Source: Limnochordia bacterium
GTDB lineage: Bacteria; Bacillota; Limnochordia; DTU080
Assembly: GCA_050951545.1 (NCBI GenBank)
Contig: JBMNJG010000002.1
Span: forward strand, 64,001-128,000
Length of the DNA: 64,000 nt
Reading direction: 5' to 3'
The notes beneath the pieces are model-generated. The model was given only the letters and a program-made list of their open reading frames with translations, did not search any database and was not told where the DNA came from. Positions within the stretch are counted from its first letter, which is position 1. Every line of letters starts with the position of its first letter. Shown here one piece after another: positions 4,758 through 60,861 of the stretch. Both the position numbers and the translations under genes were made by a program.

Positions 4758-4778
4758 GGGTGCACACAGGAAATCGCG
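4758..4778 (-). mobile_element. ISKra4/ISLre2-like terminal inverted-repeat remnant
   Basis: gggtgcacacaggaaatcgcg matches the reverse complement of 60410-60430 (gggtgcacacgcgaaattgcg) at 18/21 positions. Confidence 0.5.
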
Positions 4779-4871
4779 ATGAGCAGTAGGGCACAGATGA
4801 GGCCCTCTAGGGCCGCTCATTATTCAAGAAAGAGTGTGTGATAGAGAGAGCCATTGCCTGGCCCAAGGCCA

Positions 4872-5936
4872 TTACGTGTTCTGTGTGTCGGCCAGCTCAG
4901 GTGTGGATTCCTTGGTGGGCGCCCAGCCACGCTCTGCCCTCTCACGATAGCTCTCGCAGCGTCTCTCCAGGTAGTTGATCAACACGCGATTGCAGCGTAC
5001 GCCGCGCCGCAGCGGTAGCCGTTTGCCGATCTCTTGCAGCAAGGTCTGCCAGCCCAGTTCCTCGCCCCGGACTTCTATCAGCGTGACCCCTTTTTCCTTA
5101 GACATCTCTCGCTTCATTTGGTCACGCTCCTTTTGCGCAGCCACTACCTCTTCATCAAACCAGTTCGTGACGCTGTAGTGCTGCTGCCCATTGAACTCAA
5201 AGGCCACCCAGTGGTGGTAATAGAAGCGGTCGTACTCGAGTGACTCGTCCGTAAGGGGGTTTGTCAAGATGTCCGGTGTCGAACCATCGTGATAGGATCT
5301 GGAAGCCACAAGGGCTGATAGCATGGCCTGCATCAAGGCCTCCCCATAGTAGGGCACCCCCATGAGGCGATCTCGCACTTTCAGCACTTCGGTGATGTGC
5401 TTGGCTTTGACGGGATTGCGGAGGTGAAAACGAATCGGGGCATGCTTGTTCGCTTGCTCTAGCTCTAGCCAACGCAATTCCGCCAAGTGACAGACAGCAC
5501 GCTTGACCGTCTTGGCGTTGAGATTCATCATCTCAGCCAGCGAGGCGTATGTGAAAGTGCATTCCGAAGTACTGTCCTTGGGGAGCGACCCCAATACACC
5601 ATAGACTATCTTGGCCTGAGCTTTTACGTTGGTTGACATGATCAGCTCAGCAGGTATGACTGCCGTTTGACCGGATAGCTGCCAGCGCACACGCTTCCTC
5701 TTCGCTTTCGGTGGGGTATACCAGCCGTCGGCAATGAGTTTCGCTCTCGCTCTGCGGATGGTGGGGCGAGACAACCCGGTGCGCCTGGCCAGGCGAGTAG
5801 GCGAGAATAGGAACTTCCGATTCAAATGGGCATCTAGCTGTAGGGCCAGCCAAATCACCTTATCGGTCGCCTGTAGCTCACTGGAGGTCAACAGAGAAAC
5901 AGGCACGTACACCTTTTCAGCCGCTTCCATATACAA
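4872..5936 (-). CDS. Tandem HTH protein with C-terminal PD-(D/E)XK (Vsr/DUF559-like) nuclease domain, paralog 1
   Basis: Two HTH repeats (SPTRLARRTGLSRPTIRRARAKL; TYASLAEMMNLNAKTVKRAVCHL) and LEYDRFY...AFEFNGQQHY. RBS GGAGGTG and the TTG start are conserved with the 59073 paralog; the ORF-finder extension to 6404 is not supported. Confidence 0.75.
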   Translation of the reverse strand: MYMEAAEKVYVPVSLLTSSELQATDKVIWLALQLDAHLNRKFLFSPTRLARRTGLSRPTIRRARAKLIADGWYTPPKAKRKRVRWQLSGQTAVIPAELIMSTNVKAQAKIVYGVLGSLPKDSTSECTFTYASLAEMMNLNAKTVKRAVCHLAELRWLELEQANKHAPIRFHLRNPVKAKHITEVLKVRDRLMGVPYYGEALMQAMLSALVASRSYHDGSTPDILTNPLTDESLEYDRFYYHHWVAFEFNGQQHYSVTNWFDEEVVAAQKERDQMKREMSKEKGVTLIEVRGEELGWQTLLQEIGKRLPLRRGVRCNRVLINYLERRCESYRERAERGWAPTKESTPELADTQNT

Positions 5937-5956
5937 GAGGCCCACCTCCCATAGCC

Positions 5957-6010
5957 GGAATGTCTGTTCCCAGGAACTAGTGTTCGACTCGCTGCAGCGG
6001 AATCCTTCCA
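5957..6010 (-). promoter_or_regulatory. SigH-like promoter overlapping Gram-positive LexA (SOS) boxes
   Basis: GAAC-TAGT-GTTC at 5974-5985, degenerate GAAT-GTCT-GTTC at 5958-5969; minus strand AGGA-N17-GAAC. Confidence 0.6.
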
Positions 6011-6062
6011 GGTAATAGACAGACCGCTGCAAGAGCCGCCTCGCACAAGGCATGCCGCCTGA

Positions 6063-6377
6063 ACGCGACAAACCGTGTCGGATTCGGTCCATTTCTGTTG
6101 CCCCAGACGGGCAATCAAACGGGCCAGCAGGGTTTTTCGCGGTTTTTGACTGTACAAGTGAGCTCTTGGGAGCGTTTACAGACGGAAACGAAAACCGAAA
6201 CCGACCTCTTTTGCCAGCCCTCCAGCCTGCCCCAAGCACTTGAGACGGATACCAGCGAACGCCTCCGCGCCGGGGGGATACCCAGGCAGACCCCATTGGC
6301 AAGATACAGGAGTGAGGAATAATGGATGTTTCTGGTAGGGGCTGTGGAGTCTGTGGGCATCTCGCAGAGTTGTCCAT
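6063..6377. repeat. Long dispersed repeat, copy A
   Basis: Aligns to 6708-7038 (gtgtcgg.ttcggtcc, caagtgagctct, cgacctcttttgccagccct, ctcgcagagttgtccat). Confidence 0.85.
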
Positions 6378-6510
6378 GGAAACGCTACGTTCTGAGTCAG
6401 CCAAAATGGCCTAGTATCCTCATCAGAAAGTAAGCCAGCCGGAAGACGAGATGCTCTCGAAAAACCAGCCGCGCCATTGCTGGTTCCTTTTTTTCCCGTG
6501 GAAAGGATGT

Positions 6511-6567
6511 GGGCTGTGGATTCTGATGGGTAACCCTCTGGGTTACCGACAGACTCCACCGCCCCTA
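6511..6567. repeat. Inverted copy of the 57-nt hairpin unit at 6997-7053
   Basis: gggctgtggattctgatgg is the exact reverse complement of 7035-7053; the inner hairpin shows compensatory changes. Confidence 0.75.
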
Positions 6568-6705
6568 GAATCGATCGATCTATGCTAGAGGGGTACAGCC
6601 GGTCATTCGCGATGCCCACACAGGCCCAGAAAATGCGATTGGGGCAGCGATGTCGGGTGCACCTCATGCGCAGTGTTCTCACGCATGTCCCCGCCTCAGC
6701 ACAGG

Positions 6706-7053
6706 TGACACGGCAAACGGTGTCGGTTTCGGTCCGTTTGTGTTACTCTAGAAGGCCAATCGGACGGGCCGGTGCCACCTTTTCGTGGTTTCTGGGTGTG
6801 CAAGTGAGCTCTGGCGGCGGTTATGGACCGAAGCAAAGACCGAAGACGACCTCTTTTGCCAGCCCTTCAGCCTACCTCAGCCTGCCGCAAACGCAGCATC
6901 TGCAATGCAGGCCGCCGCGTCCCTCTCCGGGGGGCGCGGCCGAGAGTGACCCCATAGGGGCAAGACACAGGAATAGGGGATAATCGATGTTCTTGGTAGG
7001 GGCTGTGGGGTCTGTGGGCAACTCGCAGAGTTGTCCATCAGAATCCACAGCCC
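6706..7053. repeat. Long dispersed repeat, copy B
   Basis: First ~50 nt identical to copy C; remainder similar to copy A. Confidence 0.85.
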
Positions 7054-7146
7054 TTTTTCTTGAGGTAGCGTCAAGAGCGTAGCCAGAGCGGGAGCCTGCG
7101 CTCGTCGACGCCGCGATCAGAAGAGACTCAGTGGTGGAATGCCGCT

Positions 7147-7302
7147 TGACACGGCAAACGGTGTCGGTTTCGGTCCGTTTGTGTTACTCTAGAAGGCAGA
7201 TCGGACGAGCCAGTGGAGTTTTCGCGGCTTCTGAGTGTGCAAGTGAGCTCTGGCGGCGGTTACAGAGGGTAGCAACAACCAGAGCCGACCTCTTTTGCCA
7301 GC
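7147..7302. repeat. Long dispersed repeat, copy C (core only)
   Basis: tgacacggcaaacggtgtcggtttcggtccgtttgtgttactctagaagg is identical to 6706 onward; ends at cgacctcttttgccagc. Confidence 0.85.
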
Positions 7303-7587
7303 GATCTGTACCTCAATCGTGAACTCGCCGACCGATAGGGATCGGTCGGCGCTCAGACTGCTATGAGTAGTCGAGGAGAGAACGGGGAACCTAGACTGGA
7401 ACGCAGGGTAACTGTGGTTGTTCTGTGTGCGGTCCCCGGCCAACCGCTTGCCTTTCGTATCTACCTGGAGGATACCTGTGCTGGCTAGCGAATCAATTGT
7501 AGTTGCACCATCAGACTTTCTAGCCCACTACGTATGCGCAGAGGGCTGTTCGTCTACGATATTGTGCAGATACGTAGAGGTGATCGG

Positions 7588-55271: not shown

Positions 55272-55391
55272 GAGATCTACGAAGAACAGGCGCGCCTGCC
55301 ACAAAGACCCTATGGATAGGCGTAGCCGGGCCCTGTCTAAGGGCAGTAAGTGCTCATAGCGGCGCTTGCGGGACTGCTGATCGAATGTCTC
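55272..55391 (+). ncRNA. NiCo (czcD) metal-sensing riboswitch
   Basis: GAACAGGC...GCCGGGCC-hairpin-GGCAGTAAG...CTTGCGGGAC four-way-junction pattern upstream of a CDF exporter. Confidence 0.75.
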
Positions 55392-55431
55392 GTAAGCGCC
55401 GTTTGCGTTGTGTTCGAAAGGAGAATCTGCT

Positions 55432-56394
55432 GTGTCGGAGGAGAGCAAGCGGGTTGATCGGTTCGGTATCGGGGAGCGAGCGTCATGGGGCGCTGCGCTT
55501 GGTAACCTGGGCTTGGTCATTTTCAAGCTCGTTGCGGGCTTGCTTGGCCACAGCGCGGCAATGGTCGCTGACGCCATGCACTCTACGTCCGACATATTGG
55601 CCAGCCTAGGGGTGATTGCCAGCCTTCGTATCTCAAAGCGACCTGCGGATGAGGGTCATCCCTACGGACATGGTAAGGCCGAATCGGTAGCAGCGAAGTT
55701 GGTTGGGATAACCTTGCTTGTGGCCGGGTTCTCTATCGGGTTCTCAGCCATCAAGAGCATCCTCGCTGGGACGTATGTGAAACCAGGGATGATCGCTCTT
55801 GTGGCCGCCATTGTTTCCGTCGTGACGAAGGAGGCAATGTACCAGGTGGTCGCGGCCACTGCCCGACGCATACACAGCAGCGCCTTGCTGGCCGAAGCAT
55901 GGCATCATCGCTCCGATGCGTATTCATCGATCGGCACGGGAATCGGCATCTTCGCTGCTCGGCATGGGTGGCCTATTCTAGACCCTATCGCAGGTCTCGT
56001 CGTCGCGCTGCTTATAGCGTCCATTGGCTGGAAGACCCTTCGGAGTTCGGCACAGGAGTTGATGGATGCTCAGGTCGATGAGGAGATTCTATGCGCGCTT
56101 AGGCAGACGACTCTCGATGTGGAAGGTGTTCACGATATTCACACCATAGCGGCGCGCCGCTATGGTGGCTCATACTATGTTGACCTGCGCATCGGAGCCG
56201 ATTCACATCTGAGCCTGGAAGAAGGGCATGAGATCGCGATGCAGGTGGAGATCGCTATCAAGCGCCAGTGCGAGCGTGTTGTCGGTGTACTGGTGCATGT
56301 GGACCCTGAGAGCGTGCACCGAAATGATCCCGCGGGCGACGGCCACGCTATGTTGGGAAAACATGGCTCGAGTAGGTGTGGCACGGTGGGCTAG
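55432..56394 (+). CDS. Cation diffusion facilitator (FieF/CzcD-like)
   Basis: ADAMHSTSD, HPYGHGKAE, WHHRSD, VLVHVDP. Confidence 0.93.
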   Translation: MSEESKRVDRFGIGERASWGAALGNLGLVIFKLVAGLLGHSAAMVADAMHSTSDILASLGVIASLRISKRPADEGHPYGHGKAESVAAKLVGITLLVAGFSIGFSAIKSILAGTYVKPGMIALVAAIVSVVTKEAMYQVVAATARRIHSSALLAEAWHHRSDAYSSIGTGIGIFAARHGWPILDPIAGLVVALLIASIGWKTLRSSAQELMDAQVDEEILCALRQTTLDVEGVHDIHTIAARRYGGSYYVDLRIGADSHLSLEEGHEIAMQVEIAIKRQCERVVGVLVHVDPESVHRNDPAGDGHAMLGKHGSSRCGTVG

Positions 56395-57820: not shown

Positions 57821-57948
57821 GAAATGACCACAAAGCGCAGGTGATTTCGAGGACGAAACTAACCATCCAAGAGGTCGTGTTCCACTGGGGCCACGCAAAA
57901 AACTGCGGTAATCTCCCTGCGTTCGCTTGGGTTGGTGGTAAGAACCTT

Positions 57949-58916
57949 GCGATGCGGTCTTCGCGAAGCCCTTTTTGCTCATTTTGACCGCCTGAAGGGC
58001 TCATTTCTCCCCAAAAGGGCACACTTTCCCGCCTTGATTTCGCTTCTGGGGCTACCGGGCAGCACATAACCGAACGGTGGTGGTACCTTTTTCCCACTCA
58101 GTCGATTGGGTCAGCTCTCCAGTGCGCGATCACCGCGGGCTCACTCGGGTCCCTCTGCGAACCGACCCTTCGGTGTTGCCCCGGTCGGTGCATTTGGCAA
58201 ATAATGGACAGGTGCAATGGACGCGCTCGCGAAACAGGCTCGGTAGTCGGACACCAGCCGGATTGGTATGTGAGGCCGGGCGAAGGATGTGGCCGCGATG
58301 GCAAGAGAGCCGCCCCATTCACCCCCGGAGCCAGTGTACGTGGTAAAAGTGCAGCGATGCGGCCTTCGCGGAGCCCTTTTTGCTCATTTTGACCGCCCGA
58401 AGGGCTCTTTTCACCGCCTAAGGGCACACTTTCCCGCCTTGATTTCGCTTCTGGGGCTATCGGGCGGCACATAACCGAACGGTGGTGATACCTTTTTCCC
58501 ACTCAGTCGATTGGGTCAGCTCTCCAGTGCGCGATCACCGCGGGCTCACTCGGGTCCCTCTGCGAACCGACCCTTCAGTGTTAACCCGGTCGGTGTGTTT
58601 CGAAAAGGGTGGACAGATGCAATGGACGCGCTCGCGAAACAGGCCCTGCAGTCAGACACCAGCCGGATTGGTACGTGAGTCGGGGCCAAAAATCCGACCG
58701 TGATGGCAAAAGAGCCGCCTCATTAACCCCCGGGCCCAATGTACGTGGTAAAAGTGCAGCGATGCGGCCTTCGCGGAGCCCTTTTTGCTCATTTTGACCG
58801 CCCGAAGGGCTCATTTCCCCCCAAAAGAGCACGCTTTCTCGCCCTGGTGGCCCTTCTGGAGCTACTGAGCAGTACATAACCGAACAGTGGCGATAGCCTT
58901 TTCCCACTCAGCCGAT
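57949..58916. repeat. 405-bp tandem repeat, about 2.4 copies
   Basis: gcgatgcgg.cttcgcg.agccctttttgctcattttgaccgcc recurs at 57949, 58354 and 58759; no indels seen between copies. Confidence 0.92.
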
Positions 58917-58995
58917 GATCCGAGGGTGAAATGCTGTCGACTCCCAGTGGCCACCGGGTCTTAGCTGGCAATGCGCGCGCTGTCAGCGAAAGCTG

Positions 58996-59054
58996 TGGAA
59001 GGATTCTGGCCTCACGTACCGAACATCGCATCGAGACAATCGAACACATGATCG
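58996..59054 (+). promoter_or_regulatory. SigH-like promoter and degenerate LexA box
   Basis: ggaAGGAtt-N15-GAAC with the same spacing as upstream of paralog 1; CGAAC-ACAT-GATCG at 59041-59054. Confidence 0.5.
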
Positions 59055-59072
59055 TTGTGTGAGGTGAGGCCC

Positions 59073-60134
59073 TTGTACTCTCTCTATGTAGATGAGGTGA
59101 ACGTGCCGCTCTCACTGCTACTGACTCGCGAGCTAAAAGCCAGCGAGAAGATCGTTTGGATGGCCTTAACGATGGATGATCAGCTGGAGGAAAGCTTCCT
59201 TTTCTCGCCCAGCCGCCTGGGGCGGCGCACGGGTATGTCCCGGCCTACCGTTCGCAGGGCGACAGCCAAGTTAACCACCGAGGGCTGGTTTGCTCCACCG
59301 GCTAGGCGGGGACCTAGCCAGACCGCGGCACAGAAGCCATCCCCGGACAGGGTCTCCGTGCCTGTGGAGCTAGTCATGGCTACTGAAATCCATGCACAGG
59401 CCAAATTGGTTTATGCCGTACTGCTGTCCAAACCTACGGACCCACCTCGCAAAAGGCAGTTCACATACGCTGAGTTAGCCGGCCGGATGAGTCTGAGCCC
59501 CCAAACCATCAAACACGCGGCTCGTCAGTTGGCCAAGCATGGTTGGCTGGAGATGGAGCAGGCGCACAAGCGGGCACCGATTCGCTTCACTCTCCACAAC
59601 CCGGTTGATAAGCGAAATGTAAAAGAAATACTAGACGTGCAGGATGAGCTCCACCGCGCTACGCACCTCGGAGAGGCTCTCATGCAGGCTATCTTCTTGG
59701 CGCTTGTCGATTGCCTTGACTTCGACGACGGAATGCGCCCAGGTTTCATGAGGAACCCAGCAACTGGCAAGCGTCTGGAGGTCGATCTCTTCTATTACTT
59801 GCACAATACGGCCATGGAGTTCAATGGGGCGCAACACTACCGCGTCACGGAGCGGAATTCGGCTGAGCAGGTCCATAAGCAGCAATGCCGTGACCAGACC
59901 AAACAGCAGATCTGCGCTAAGAAGAAGATCAAGCTGATCGTGATTCAGACTCACGAGCTGTCCTGCAAGATCATCAAGCGCAAGATTCACAGGCGGCTGC
60001 CATTCCGGCGCGGTCAGGACTTCAACCGGAGGCTCATCAACTATCTCGAGTGTAGATGCGGTGAGTACCAGCAAAGAATAGATGAACGTGGCTGGGGAAC
60101 CGCCAGCCAATCTGAGAGAAAGCAAGACGAGTAA
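59073..60134 (+). CDS. Tandem HTH protein with C-terminal PD-(D/E)XK-like nuclease domain, paralog 2
   Basis: Collinear with 4872-5936 (FLFSPSRLGRRTGMSRPT, FTYAELA, GEALMQA, LEVDLFYY...EFNGAQHY, LINYLE); TTG start after gaggtgag. Confidence 0.78.
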   Translation: MYSLYVDEVNVPLSLLLTRELKASEKIVWMALTMDDQLEESFLFSPSRLGRRTGMSRPTVRRATAKLTTEGWFAPPARRGPSQTAAQKPSPDRVSVPVELVMATEIHAQAKLVYAVLLSKPTDPPRKRQFTYAELAGRMSLSPQTIKHAARQLAKHGWLEMEQAHKRAPIRFTLHNPVDKRNVKEILDVQDELHRATHLGEALMQAIFLALVDCLDFDDGMRPGFMRNPATGKRLEVDLFYYLHNTAMEFNGAQHYRVTERNSAEQVHKQQCRDQTKQQICAKKKIKLIVIQTHELSCKIIKRKIHRRLPFRRGQDFNRRLINYLECRCGEYQQRIDERGWGTASQSERKQDE

Positions 60135-60211
60135 TCACCCTGGGTCACCTCGTCCGTTTCATTAGGGCTCGCATCAGCCGTGCAGCCAATGTTAGTGCGC
60201 GTCCACCCGCC

Positions 60212-60430
60212 GCTGGCTACCCCATTGGCAGCGGATGCGTAGAAAGCGCCTGTAAGCAGGTTGTTGTTAGGCGCCACAAGCAATCTGGAATGCGTTGGAG
60301 CCAACTTAGGGCACAGCAGATGCCAAACGTTGCAGCATACTCCCACGGTGAACAGTGGGACGATTTCTGGGAGAGGCGGGAGGCAGCATGATTAGGAACG
60401 GGTGTTCGCCGCAATTTCGCGTGTGCACCC
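60212..60430 (+). mobile_element. ISKra4/ISLre2-family transposase 3' remnant with terminal IR
   Basis: Frame from 60212 reads AGYPIGSGCVESACKQVVVRRHKQSGMRWS...WDDFW (stop 60389-60391); ends in ...gtgtgcaccc at 60430. Confidence 0.8.
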
Positions 60431-60488: not shown

Positions 60489-60564
<76 letters not shown>

Positions 60565-60659
60565 CATCCGAGGCCTTGCACCACATTGCAGGGCCTCTTT
60601 CGCATTGGCTAGACCATGTTGTCTGGTGACGCCGACTCGCCAAGCCAGGCCATCGGCGC

Positions 60660-60688
60660 TTGACGCTGGTCGGTGCAGGTGCTAAAAT
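60660..60688 (+). promoter_or_regulatory. SigA promoter for tRNA-Ile/tRNA-Ala
   Basis: TTGACG-N17-TAAAAT. Confidence 0.7.
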
Positions 60689-60701
60689 AATCACATGTTG
60701 T

Positions 60702-60778
60702 GGGCTTATAGCTCAGGTGGCTAGAGCGCACCCCTGATAAGGGTGAGGTCGGTGGTTCGAATCCACCTAAGCCCACCA
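60702..60778 (+). tRNA. tRNA-Ile(GAT)
   Basis: Cloverleaf, anticodon loop ctgataa, CCA. Confidence 0.96.
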
Positions 60779-60786
60779 CAGCATAT

Positions 60787-60861
60787 GGGGATGTAGCTCA
60801 GTGGGAGAGCGCCGCCCTTGCATGGCGGAGGTCAGTGGTTCGAACCCTCTCATCTCCACCA
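60787..60861 (+). tRNA. tRNA-Ala(TGC), second divergent copy
   Basis: Cloverleaf, loop cttgcat, one T-stem mismatch, CCA. Confidence 0.92.

Follow-up and report, generated by a model that had tools for sequence, protein, structure and literature searches.

EDxHD homing endonucleases, such as I-Bth0305I and ORF194 of Bacillus phage 0305phi8-36, combine an N-terminal DNA-binding region of the helix-turn-helix (HTH) type with a C-terminal Vsr-like nuclease. A similar arrangement is predicted for the protein of a repeated element found twice in a 64,000-nucleotide stretch of the genome of an uncultured Limnochordia bacterium (assembly GCA_050951545.1, contig JBMNJG010000002.1, positions 64,001 to 128,000; hereafter the window), at positions 4758-7437 (copy 1) and 57887-60430 (copy 2). 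The element's protein has detectable homology to these phage enzymes (E 4e-6 to ORF194 and 3e-9 in PHROG) and a similar spacing of the active-site residues. Unlike them, the element is not located in an intron, an intein or phage DNA; its multiple copies lie at unrelated sites of the chromosome, with 9-bp duplications that differ, and not at one cognate site, and it has long tandem arrays and defined ends. I-Bth0305I leaves 2-nt 5' overhangs (PMC3239194).

Nucleases of the DUF559/Vsr type, which belong to the PD-(D/E)XK superfamily, share with the element a motif pattern that is in register in profile-profile alignment. However, the element copies are missed by the Pfam model, do not occur in a Vsr-type mismatch-repair context and carry the domain fused to two winged HTH (wHTH) domains. 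Classical insertion sequences and transposons resemble the element in their defined ends, 9-bp duplication, near-identical copies and internal-deletion derivatives, but the element encodes no known transposase class, its ends are barely inverted repeats, and it has long tandem units in place of short binding sites. Tn7, for example, makes target duplications and has multiple subterminal binding sites; its TnsA is a PD-(D/E)XK nuclease. Finally, phage and plasmid initiators acting on iterons (lambda O-like or DnaD-like) also present a pair of winged helices and repeats adjoining the gene; the units of the element are, however, 5-30 times longer, a nuclease replaces the initiator C-terminus, and the element resides in the chromosome in multiple copies with target duplications. 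No described transposon family resembles the element, and a literature search, mostly at the level of abstracts, found no description of such a unit.

Our analysis revealed that the element inserts at unrelated sites, duplicating 9 bp of the target, and that its copies keep the protein under purifying selection. On balance we lean towards regarding it as a recently active, transposon-like element with a single gene, the product of which would be its own mobility enzyme. More tentatively, it may represent a new class of prokaryotic transposon, in which a Vsr-like nuclease would be the sole and self-sufficient mobility protein, making cuts 9 bp apart at non-specific targets, with a repeat array as platform and, in some lineages, an SOS switch.

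Copy Number, Ends and Target Duplications

The genome of 3.64 Mb is assembled in 16 contigs, with a completeness of 93.9%. The protein has 35 matches in it, which tblastn resolves to 28 whole or split genes and one fragment. Four subfamilies can be distinguished by DNA identity, namely A (n = 15), B (n = 7), C (n = 4) and D (n = 2), with identities of 96.5-99.7% within subfamilies (97.1-99.7% in A); copy 1 is a D element and copy 2 an A element. The subfamilies differ in their repeats and, where compared, in their end sequences, and each has its own diverged copy of the gene. Element sizes range from 2544 to 4070 bp, and 28 copies of roughly 2-4 kb would account for about 2% of the genome, so that the element is abundant enough for shaping it.

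Ends and target duplications were defined for subfamily A. Homology between A copies ends at fixed sequences, GGGGCCACGCAAAAAACTGCGG... on the left and ...CGATTTCGCGTGTGCACCC on the right. Both ends were located in seven gene-bearing A copies, five of which (C11_346100, C3_132495, C4_116010, C5_130664 and C7_456483) are flanked by perfect 9-bp direct repeats; these five duplications are all different (AGCTGCTTG, CTTCGCGAA, CACGCCCGA, ACCTTCCCT and ACCATACGG). A gene-less relic on contig C12 has an 8/9 duplication. Of the 11 occurrences of the right-end motif TTTCNNGTGTGCAC in the genome, 10 are no more than 5 kb from a family gene, and 27-nt end patterns (at most 5 mismatches) yielded 10 matches for the left end and 16 for the right, mostly adjoining family genes, arrays or relics. 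A second kind of element using these ends was not found in the genome. As expected of a transposon, copies at different sites have identical ends. A preliminary description of copy 1, made from the sequence of the window, had proposed a mobile or selfish unit, which is now strongly supported by the 28 copies, the defined ends, the 9-bp duplications and the deletion derivatives. It had also suggested comparing filled and empty sites in related genomes. The two same-genus genomes offered no clean empty site: neither has a copy of the gene, flanking DNA is ~72-75% identical, a different gene is present at the copy 1 site, and the flanks of copy 2 are not syntenic.

Internal-deletion derivatives of subfamily A were detected at C14:234-1053, C5:366189-366544 and C6:159457-159832. 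The deletion junction of the first one (59481 joined to 60393 on the scale of the window) recurs in contigs of two metatranscriptome runs. In addition, some A right arms contain two right-end-like modules in tandem, an inner one ending in ...TCTCGTGTGCACTC and an outer, terminal one. Such modules lie at C7:457692 and C7:458150, +190 and +645 after the gene of C7_456483, and the 9-bp duplication of this copy goes with the outer module.

The Encoded Protein

The copy 1 protein contains two HTH_36 stretches according to Pfam (E 5.2e-15), in accordance with the two HTH repeats noted previously. Its N-terminal domains also match PHROG families of replication-initiator, O-like and DnaD-like winged helices (E 3.5e-10 to 1e-6). 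For the C-terminal 170 residues Pfam returned no match, and NCBIfam added none. This region contains the motif VAFEFNGQQHY, the C-terminal signature to which the preliminary description had drawn attention, and D215, P219, D234, E245, G248, H251, R269 and K273 are invariant across 28 aligned members. Among the residues corresponding to the catalytic ones of Vsr, D234, H251 and D270 vary little or not at all, and position 247 is N or H. The spacings from D234 to N247, H251 and D270 are 13, 17 and 36, respectively, with the same order and similar spacing as in Vsr and I-Bth0305I. The active sites of the latter two are D51/H64/H69/D97 and D196/N208/H213/D222, respectively (PMC3239194).

The C-terminal domain matches phrog_559 (1.2e-11), phrog_9084 annotated as "homing endonuclease" (3e-9) and phrog_7140 annotated as "intron encoded nuclease" (5.4e-6). 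With tblastn, the "homing nuclease" ORF194 of Bacillus phage 0305phi8-36 was recovered (E 4e-6), along with "VSR endonuclease" genes of Enterococcus phages. Comparison with a DUF559 alignment in hhalign gave an E-value of 1.1e-4 and a probability of 56%, the motifs being in register along the pattern E.D ... E.[DN]G..H ... RD..K ... G. A profile of the nuclease domain matched 23,845 representative proteins at E <= 0.001 and 300 at E <= 1e-30; the domain therefore appears to be a branch of a large superfamily. Matches in a protein atlas scored below 0.9 and serve as leads only. At the level of sequence profiles, these results support the earlier assignment to a Vsr/DUF559-like nuclease, predicted here to be related to phage homing endonucleases of the EDxHD type.

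Ratios of nonsynonymous to synonymous substitution rates (dN/dS) among copies are 0.13 in A, 0.17 in B, 0.21 in C and 0.07 in D, and variable sites concentrate at third codon positions. A second credible open reading frame (ORF) was not found inside the elements, those within the arrays being of low complexity and in a frame that is not kept between copies. Similarly, no DDE, serine, tyrosine or HUH enzyme was found in the elements, the only domains recognized by Pfam and NCBIfam in the element ORF being HTH domains. The low dN/dS, together with the absence of another ORF, fits a protein that every successful copy needs in working order. An apparent in-frame TAG in subfamily B turned out to be the natural stop codon, beyond which the alignment had run.

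Mobility and Alternative Explanations

We envisage an element composed of a left end, a long repeat array specific to the subfamily, the gene, and a short right arm ending in ...GTGTGCACCC. The winged helices would bind element DNA, at the ends, the repeat units or both, and the nuclease would then cut donor and target, the target cuts being placed ~9 bp apart. Insertion might be completed by host repair filling the gaps or by end-joining, while the arrays would work neither as RNA nor as protein but as DNA, providing a binding platform with multiple sites. Expression in subfamilies D and C could be coupled to DNA damage by a LexA-type operator ahead of the gene. The autonomous reading is preferred because there is no other gene inside the element, its ends are not shared with loci elsewhere and dN/dS is low. 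The step from nuclease to transposase is one that we infer, and we know of no precedent for it. End-joining is conceivable because a Ku gene is present. This is the only Ku match in the genome (C3:133863-134384), and it lies ~150 nt from the left end of an A element (near C3:133716), a neighborhood that is probably a coincidence.

A number of observations weigh against a self-mobilizing nuclease. To our knowledge, no PD-(D/E)XK or Vsr-like nuclease transposes alone, and target duplications classically arise from DDE transposases. The Pfam models of DUF559 (PF04480, E <= 1) and DUF2726 matched no element copy in the genome (DUF2726 is weakly present in 4/28 relatives), and two PDB profile searches, with alignments of the whole protein and of its C-terminal part, returned wHTH regulators or nothing, and no nuclease. 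The left and right ends share only GGGGCCAC/GGGTGCAC (6/8 bases), and the local alignment of the left end with the inverted right end scores no better than shuffles; the ends are not called inverted repeats because this likeness is not significant. Two A copies lack a duplication, namely copy 2, the flanking 9-mers of which agree at just 4/9 positions, and one other (2/9), as would be expected if copies sometimes recombine with each other. The flanks of copy 1 show 0/9 matching positions, and the second D copy (contig C9) diverges 14 nt past the stop codon and does not have the right end of copy 1. As for the arrays, most relatives in metagenome-assembled genomes (MAGs) have no detectable repeats, no short motif common to units and ends was found, nor a clear 8-mer across subfamilies, and no clear similarity to the 405-bp unit of subfamily A was seen for either end or for the sequence immediately preceding the gene. 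The proposed role of the arrays as binding sites is therefore without direct support.

If the nuclease does move the element, it would define a transposon class with a new type of enzyme, and its transposition chemistry would belong to none of the DDE, HUH, serine, tyrosine and Cas1 classes. A connection would also be made between homing endonucleases and transposons, two kinds of selfish DNA that are usually kept apart. The long and fast-changing arrays are puzzling in their own right, nothing comparable having been described in bacterial transposons. A sequence-tolerant nuclease able to insert DNA at a constant stagger could furthermore be of practical interest.

In an alternative that we consider unlikely, the element would be non-autonomous, its transposase being encoded elsewhere and the wHTH-nuclease being a passenger, for instance a regulator or a nuclease that serves in homing, addiction or defence. 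Such a partner could be missing, since the completeness of the assembly is 93.9%, and 9-bp duplications are typical of DDE transposases. Also in favor of this alternative, nucleases of this family are otherwise known as homing endonucleases, which do not make target duplications (PMC3239194). Nevertheless, these ends were not found at any other locus of the genome, 10 of the 11 end motifs lying by family genes, and subfamilies with different repeats and ends each keep a diverged copy of the same gene. The strong purifying selection among near-identical copies is likewise what a mobility protein needed in cis would be expected to show, and less expected of a passenger. The low weight given to a passenger nuclease follows from the lack of a partner with these ends and from the conservation of the gene in every subfamily.

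It appears distinctly improbable that the element is an integrated replicon, in which the winged helices would be an initiator and the repeats an origin of the iteron type, with an excised circle being amplified and then reinserted. The matches of the N-terminal domains to HTH_36 and to initiator, O-like and DnaD-like PHROG families fit this proposal, as do the repeats, which adjoin the gene like iterons. However, the units measure 94-650 bp, compared with ~20 bp for iterons, and a short internal motif was not found. The element contains no helicase or primase gene, and neither a circle junction nor a plasmid relative was seen, a plasmid search returning just two matches of 16% coverage. An integrated replicon has therefore little support, and the same is true of a role of the repeats as RNA, which is considered below.

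Tandem Repeat Arrays

Each subfamily is characterized by its own arrays. In A they lie upstream of the gene and consist of 2.1-5.7 copies of 403-409-bp units, and in D units of about 320-650 bp are also upstream. B arrays contain 2.1-4.6 copies of 93-104-bp units downstream of the gene, the 94-bp unit being found on both sides of it, and C arrays have a 262-bp unit downstream. The 405-bp family forms 25 clusters, 15 of them adjoining the 15 A genes, so that every A gene has an array; several of the remaining 10 gene-less clusters are relics or internal-deletion derivatives of A elements. All eight clusters of the 94-bp family adjoin B genes, and four of the five clusters of the 262-bp family adjoin C genes. 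Each repeat family thus adjoins its own gene subfamily, and a genome-wide repeat family unlinked to these genes, the outcome that would have spoken against the preliminary description, was not what we observed.

Fifty distinct 405-bp units have a mean likeness of 86%, variable sites without codon periodicity, and periods (403-409 bp) that are not multiples of three. The nearest relative of a unit is in another array in 33/50 cases and in its own array in 17/50; inheritance and local reshaping have therefore each played a part in the arrays. A role at the level of DNA, for example as a protein-binding array, is the best guess because there is neither coding periodicity nor a conserved RNA fold. 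Considering position, linkage to the gene and the lack of a coding or RNA signal, we would regard the arrays as a platform for DNA binding at multiple sites. The notion, also raised previously, that the units are structured non-coding RNAs acting as guides or cofactors for the nuclease is very improbable: low-depth contigs from two of four metatranscriptome runs do span the first half of the units, but these may be DNA carry-over, Rfam gave no match over the repeats at the gathering threshold, the alignment fold (E -190.9/-196.8 on the two strands against -179 to -196 in column shuffles) and the pairs with compensatory changes (14 against 9-18) are within the range of shuffles, and units are wholly different between subfamilies. 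Contigs of low depth, which may again be DNA carry-over, were recovered over the gene in all four runs; the metatranscriptome contigs run into flanking DNA and contain no information on strand or transcript ends.

A 57-nt hairpin-like module (GGGCTGTGG ... CCACAGCCC) was also observed at window positions 6997-7053 and at 11 other places of the genome, in either orientation. It is present inside D, A and C arrays, with 9/12 matches within 3.5 kb of a family gene, and behaves like a small insertion within arrays.

LexA-Type Box

The genome contains 63 GAAC-N4-GTTC sites (0.017 per kb). Two of them are in the window, and since at least two were also reached in 15/100 shuffles, the window count alone is not significant. 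The positions of the boxes relative to the genes differ between subfamilies. The box is found at -55 in 2/2 D copies and at -64 in 4/4 C copies, it lies ~30 nt from the right tip in 8/15 A copies, and none is found within B elements. It is also present at most 300 nt upstream in 8/72 relatives, compared with ~0.4 expected. The genome's own lexA gene is preceded by CGAACAGGCGTTCC and CGAACTTTTGTTCG, and the element boxes share with them the form CGAAC-N4-GTTCC. SOS control thus appears plausible for D and C elements, from the position of the boxes and the form of the lexA operator. The suggestion of a damage-inducible unit therefore holds as a plausible one for these subfamilies, but does not extend readily to A, with its box at the right end, or to B, which has none. 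Instead, or additionally, the box could be a site for the element's own protein.

Relatives in Other Genomes

The whole protein was matched by only 29 clusters among 5.8 billion, and where sources name the proteins of these clusters, the name is hypothetical. A scan of one genome per species yielded 216 relatives, with several genomes being multicopy. The best 80 of these 216 are labelled mostly as Limnochordia, Symbiobacteriaceae, Thermaerobacter and other Bacillota MAGs, a few being labelled otherwise. Relatives are thus known from Bacillota of digesters and bioreactors. Among 31 sampled related genomes, the protein was present in 11, the genome of the window included.

In other genera, direct repeats of at least 50 nt within 1.5 kb were found upstream at 12/62 loci and downstream at 5/65, compared with 0/50 and 1/56 in control segments at a distance of 3-4.6 kb. 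A break directly upstream of the gene is seen in many MAG contigs, at the point where an assembler would be halted by a tandem array. One Limnochordia MAG contains seven diverged copies that share upstream repeated units of 150-290 bp. The co-occurrence of repeats, boxes and ends, suggested earlier as a check on homologs, was found in part: upstream repeats and boxes exceed controls and expectation, but, as already mentioned, most MAG relatives are devoid of repeats, and the end motif GTGTGCAC is not enriched beside relatives in other genera.

The Two Copies in the Window

Copy 1 (subfamily D) lies on the minus strand and measures 2680 bp, from its right end at 4758 to its left end at 7437. 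It thus runs on beyond 7302, where the preliminary description had placed its limit. The right end (4758-4784, minus strand, ...CGCGATTTCCTGTGTGCACCC) includes the gggtgcacac recognized earlier as an end (4758-4767) and fits the 27-nt right-end pattern of subfamily A with at most 5 mismatches. The gene (4872-5930, minus strand; P0003) encodes the two wHTH domains and the predicted nuclease, an assignment based on the ORF, Pfam, the family alignment, PHROG, hhalign and tblastn. Its product has 352 aa when counted from an ATG and 354 aa, the length originally given, from a TTG two codons upstream; the gene of the second D copy is 98.5% identical to it in DNA. The perfect GAAC-N4-GTTC box reported before the gene is GAACTAGTGTTC at 5974-5985, a palindrome that reads CGAACACTAGTTCC on the gene strand. 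It is located 44 nt ahead of the ATG and begins 55 nt upstream of the gene start used in the genome survey of boxes. A sigma-70 promoter scan upstream of the gene, on its own strand, revealed no promoter-like site.

Three non-coding repeat copies upstream of the gene had been described, and repeat comparison recovered all three on the minus strand: unit 1 at 6061-6377, nearest the gene, unit 2 at 6706-7038, and a partial unit 3 at 7147-7318, nearest the left end. Their mutual likeness is 66-94%. Units 1 and 2 are spaced by 645 bp because of extra DNA between them, which holds an inverted copy of the 57-nt module (6511-6567, no strand assigned; partner arm at 6997-7053). On the gene strand the left end reads GGGGACCGCACACAGAAC...CCCTGCGTTC and resembles the left end of subfamily A.

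Copy 2 (57887-60430, plus strand, 2544 bp), delimited by the end patterns, was originally presented as a recurrence of the same architecture ~54 kb away. It begins with three tandem 405-bp units (57935-59044, plus strand; 100%, 91% and 61% identity to the reference unit), followed by the paralogous gene (59055-60134, plus strand; P0002), which starts with TTG and encodes 359 aa, the protein being 47% identical to that of copy 1. The right end occupies 60396-60430 (plus strand), as determined by the end pattern and the box scan, and comprises the GAACGGGTGTTC box followed by ...TTTCGCGTGTGCACCC. The earlier comparison is thus upheld for the paralog and for the units before it, but not for the box, which in copy 2 (60396-60407) lies downstream of the gene and beside the right end, nor for the repeats, the families of the two copies having no sequence in common.

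Neighboring Features

Three tRNA genes are located at 60489-60858, starting 59 nt past the right end of copy 2, and a promoter-like site (TTGACG, 17 nt, TAAACT) is found between this end and the first of them. A NiCo (nickel/cobalt) riboswitch at 55272-55378 scores 38.4 bits against a cut-off of 37 and lies directly upstream of a 328-aa ORF (55408-56394); it looks ordinary. Just outside the right end of copy 1, the segment 4451-4657 contains a core of ~90 nt for which many contigs of the two same-genus genomes have a match, at 72-89% identity. With only three further partial matches within its own genome, this core might represent a small dispersed repeat common in the sister species.

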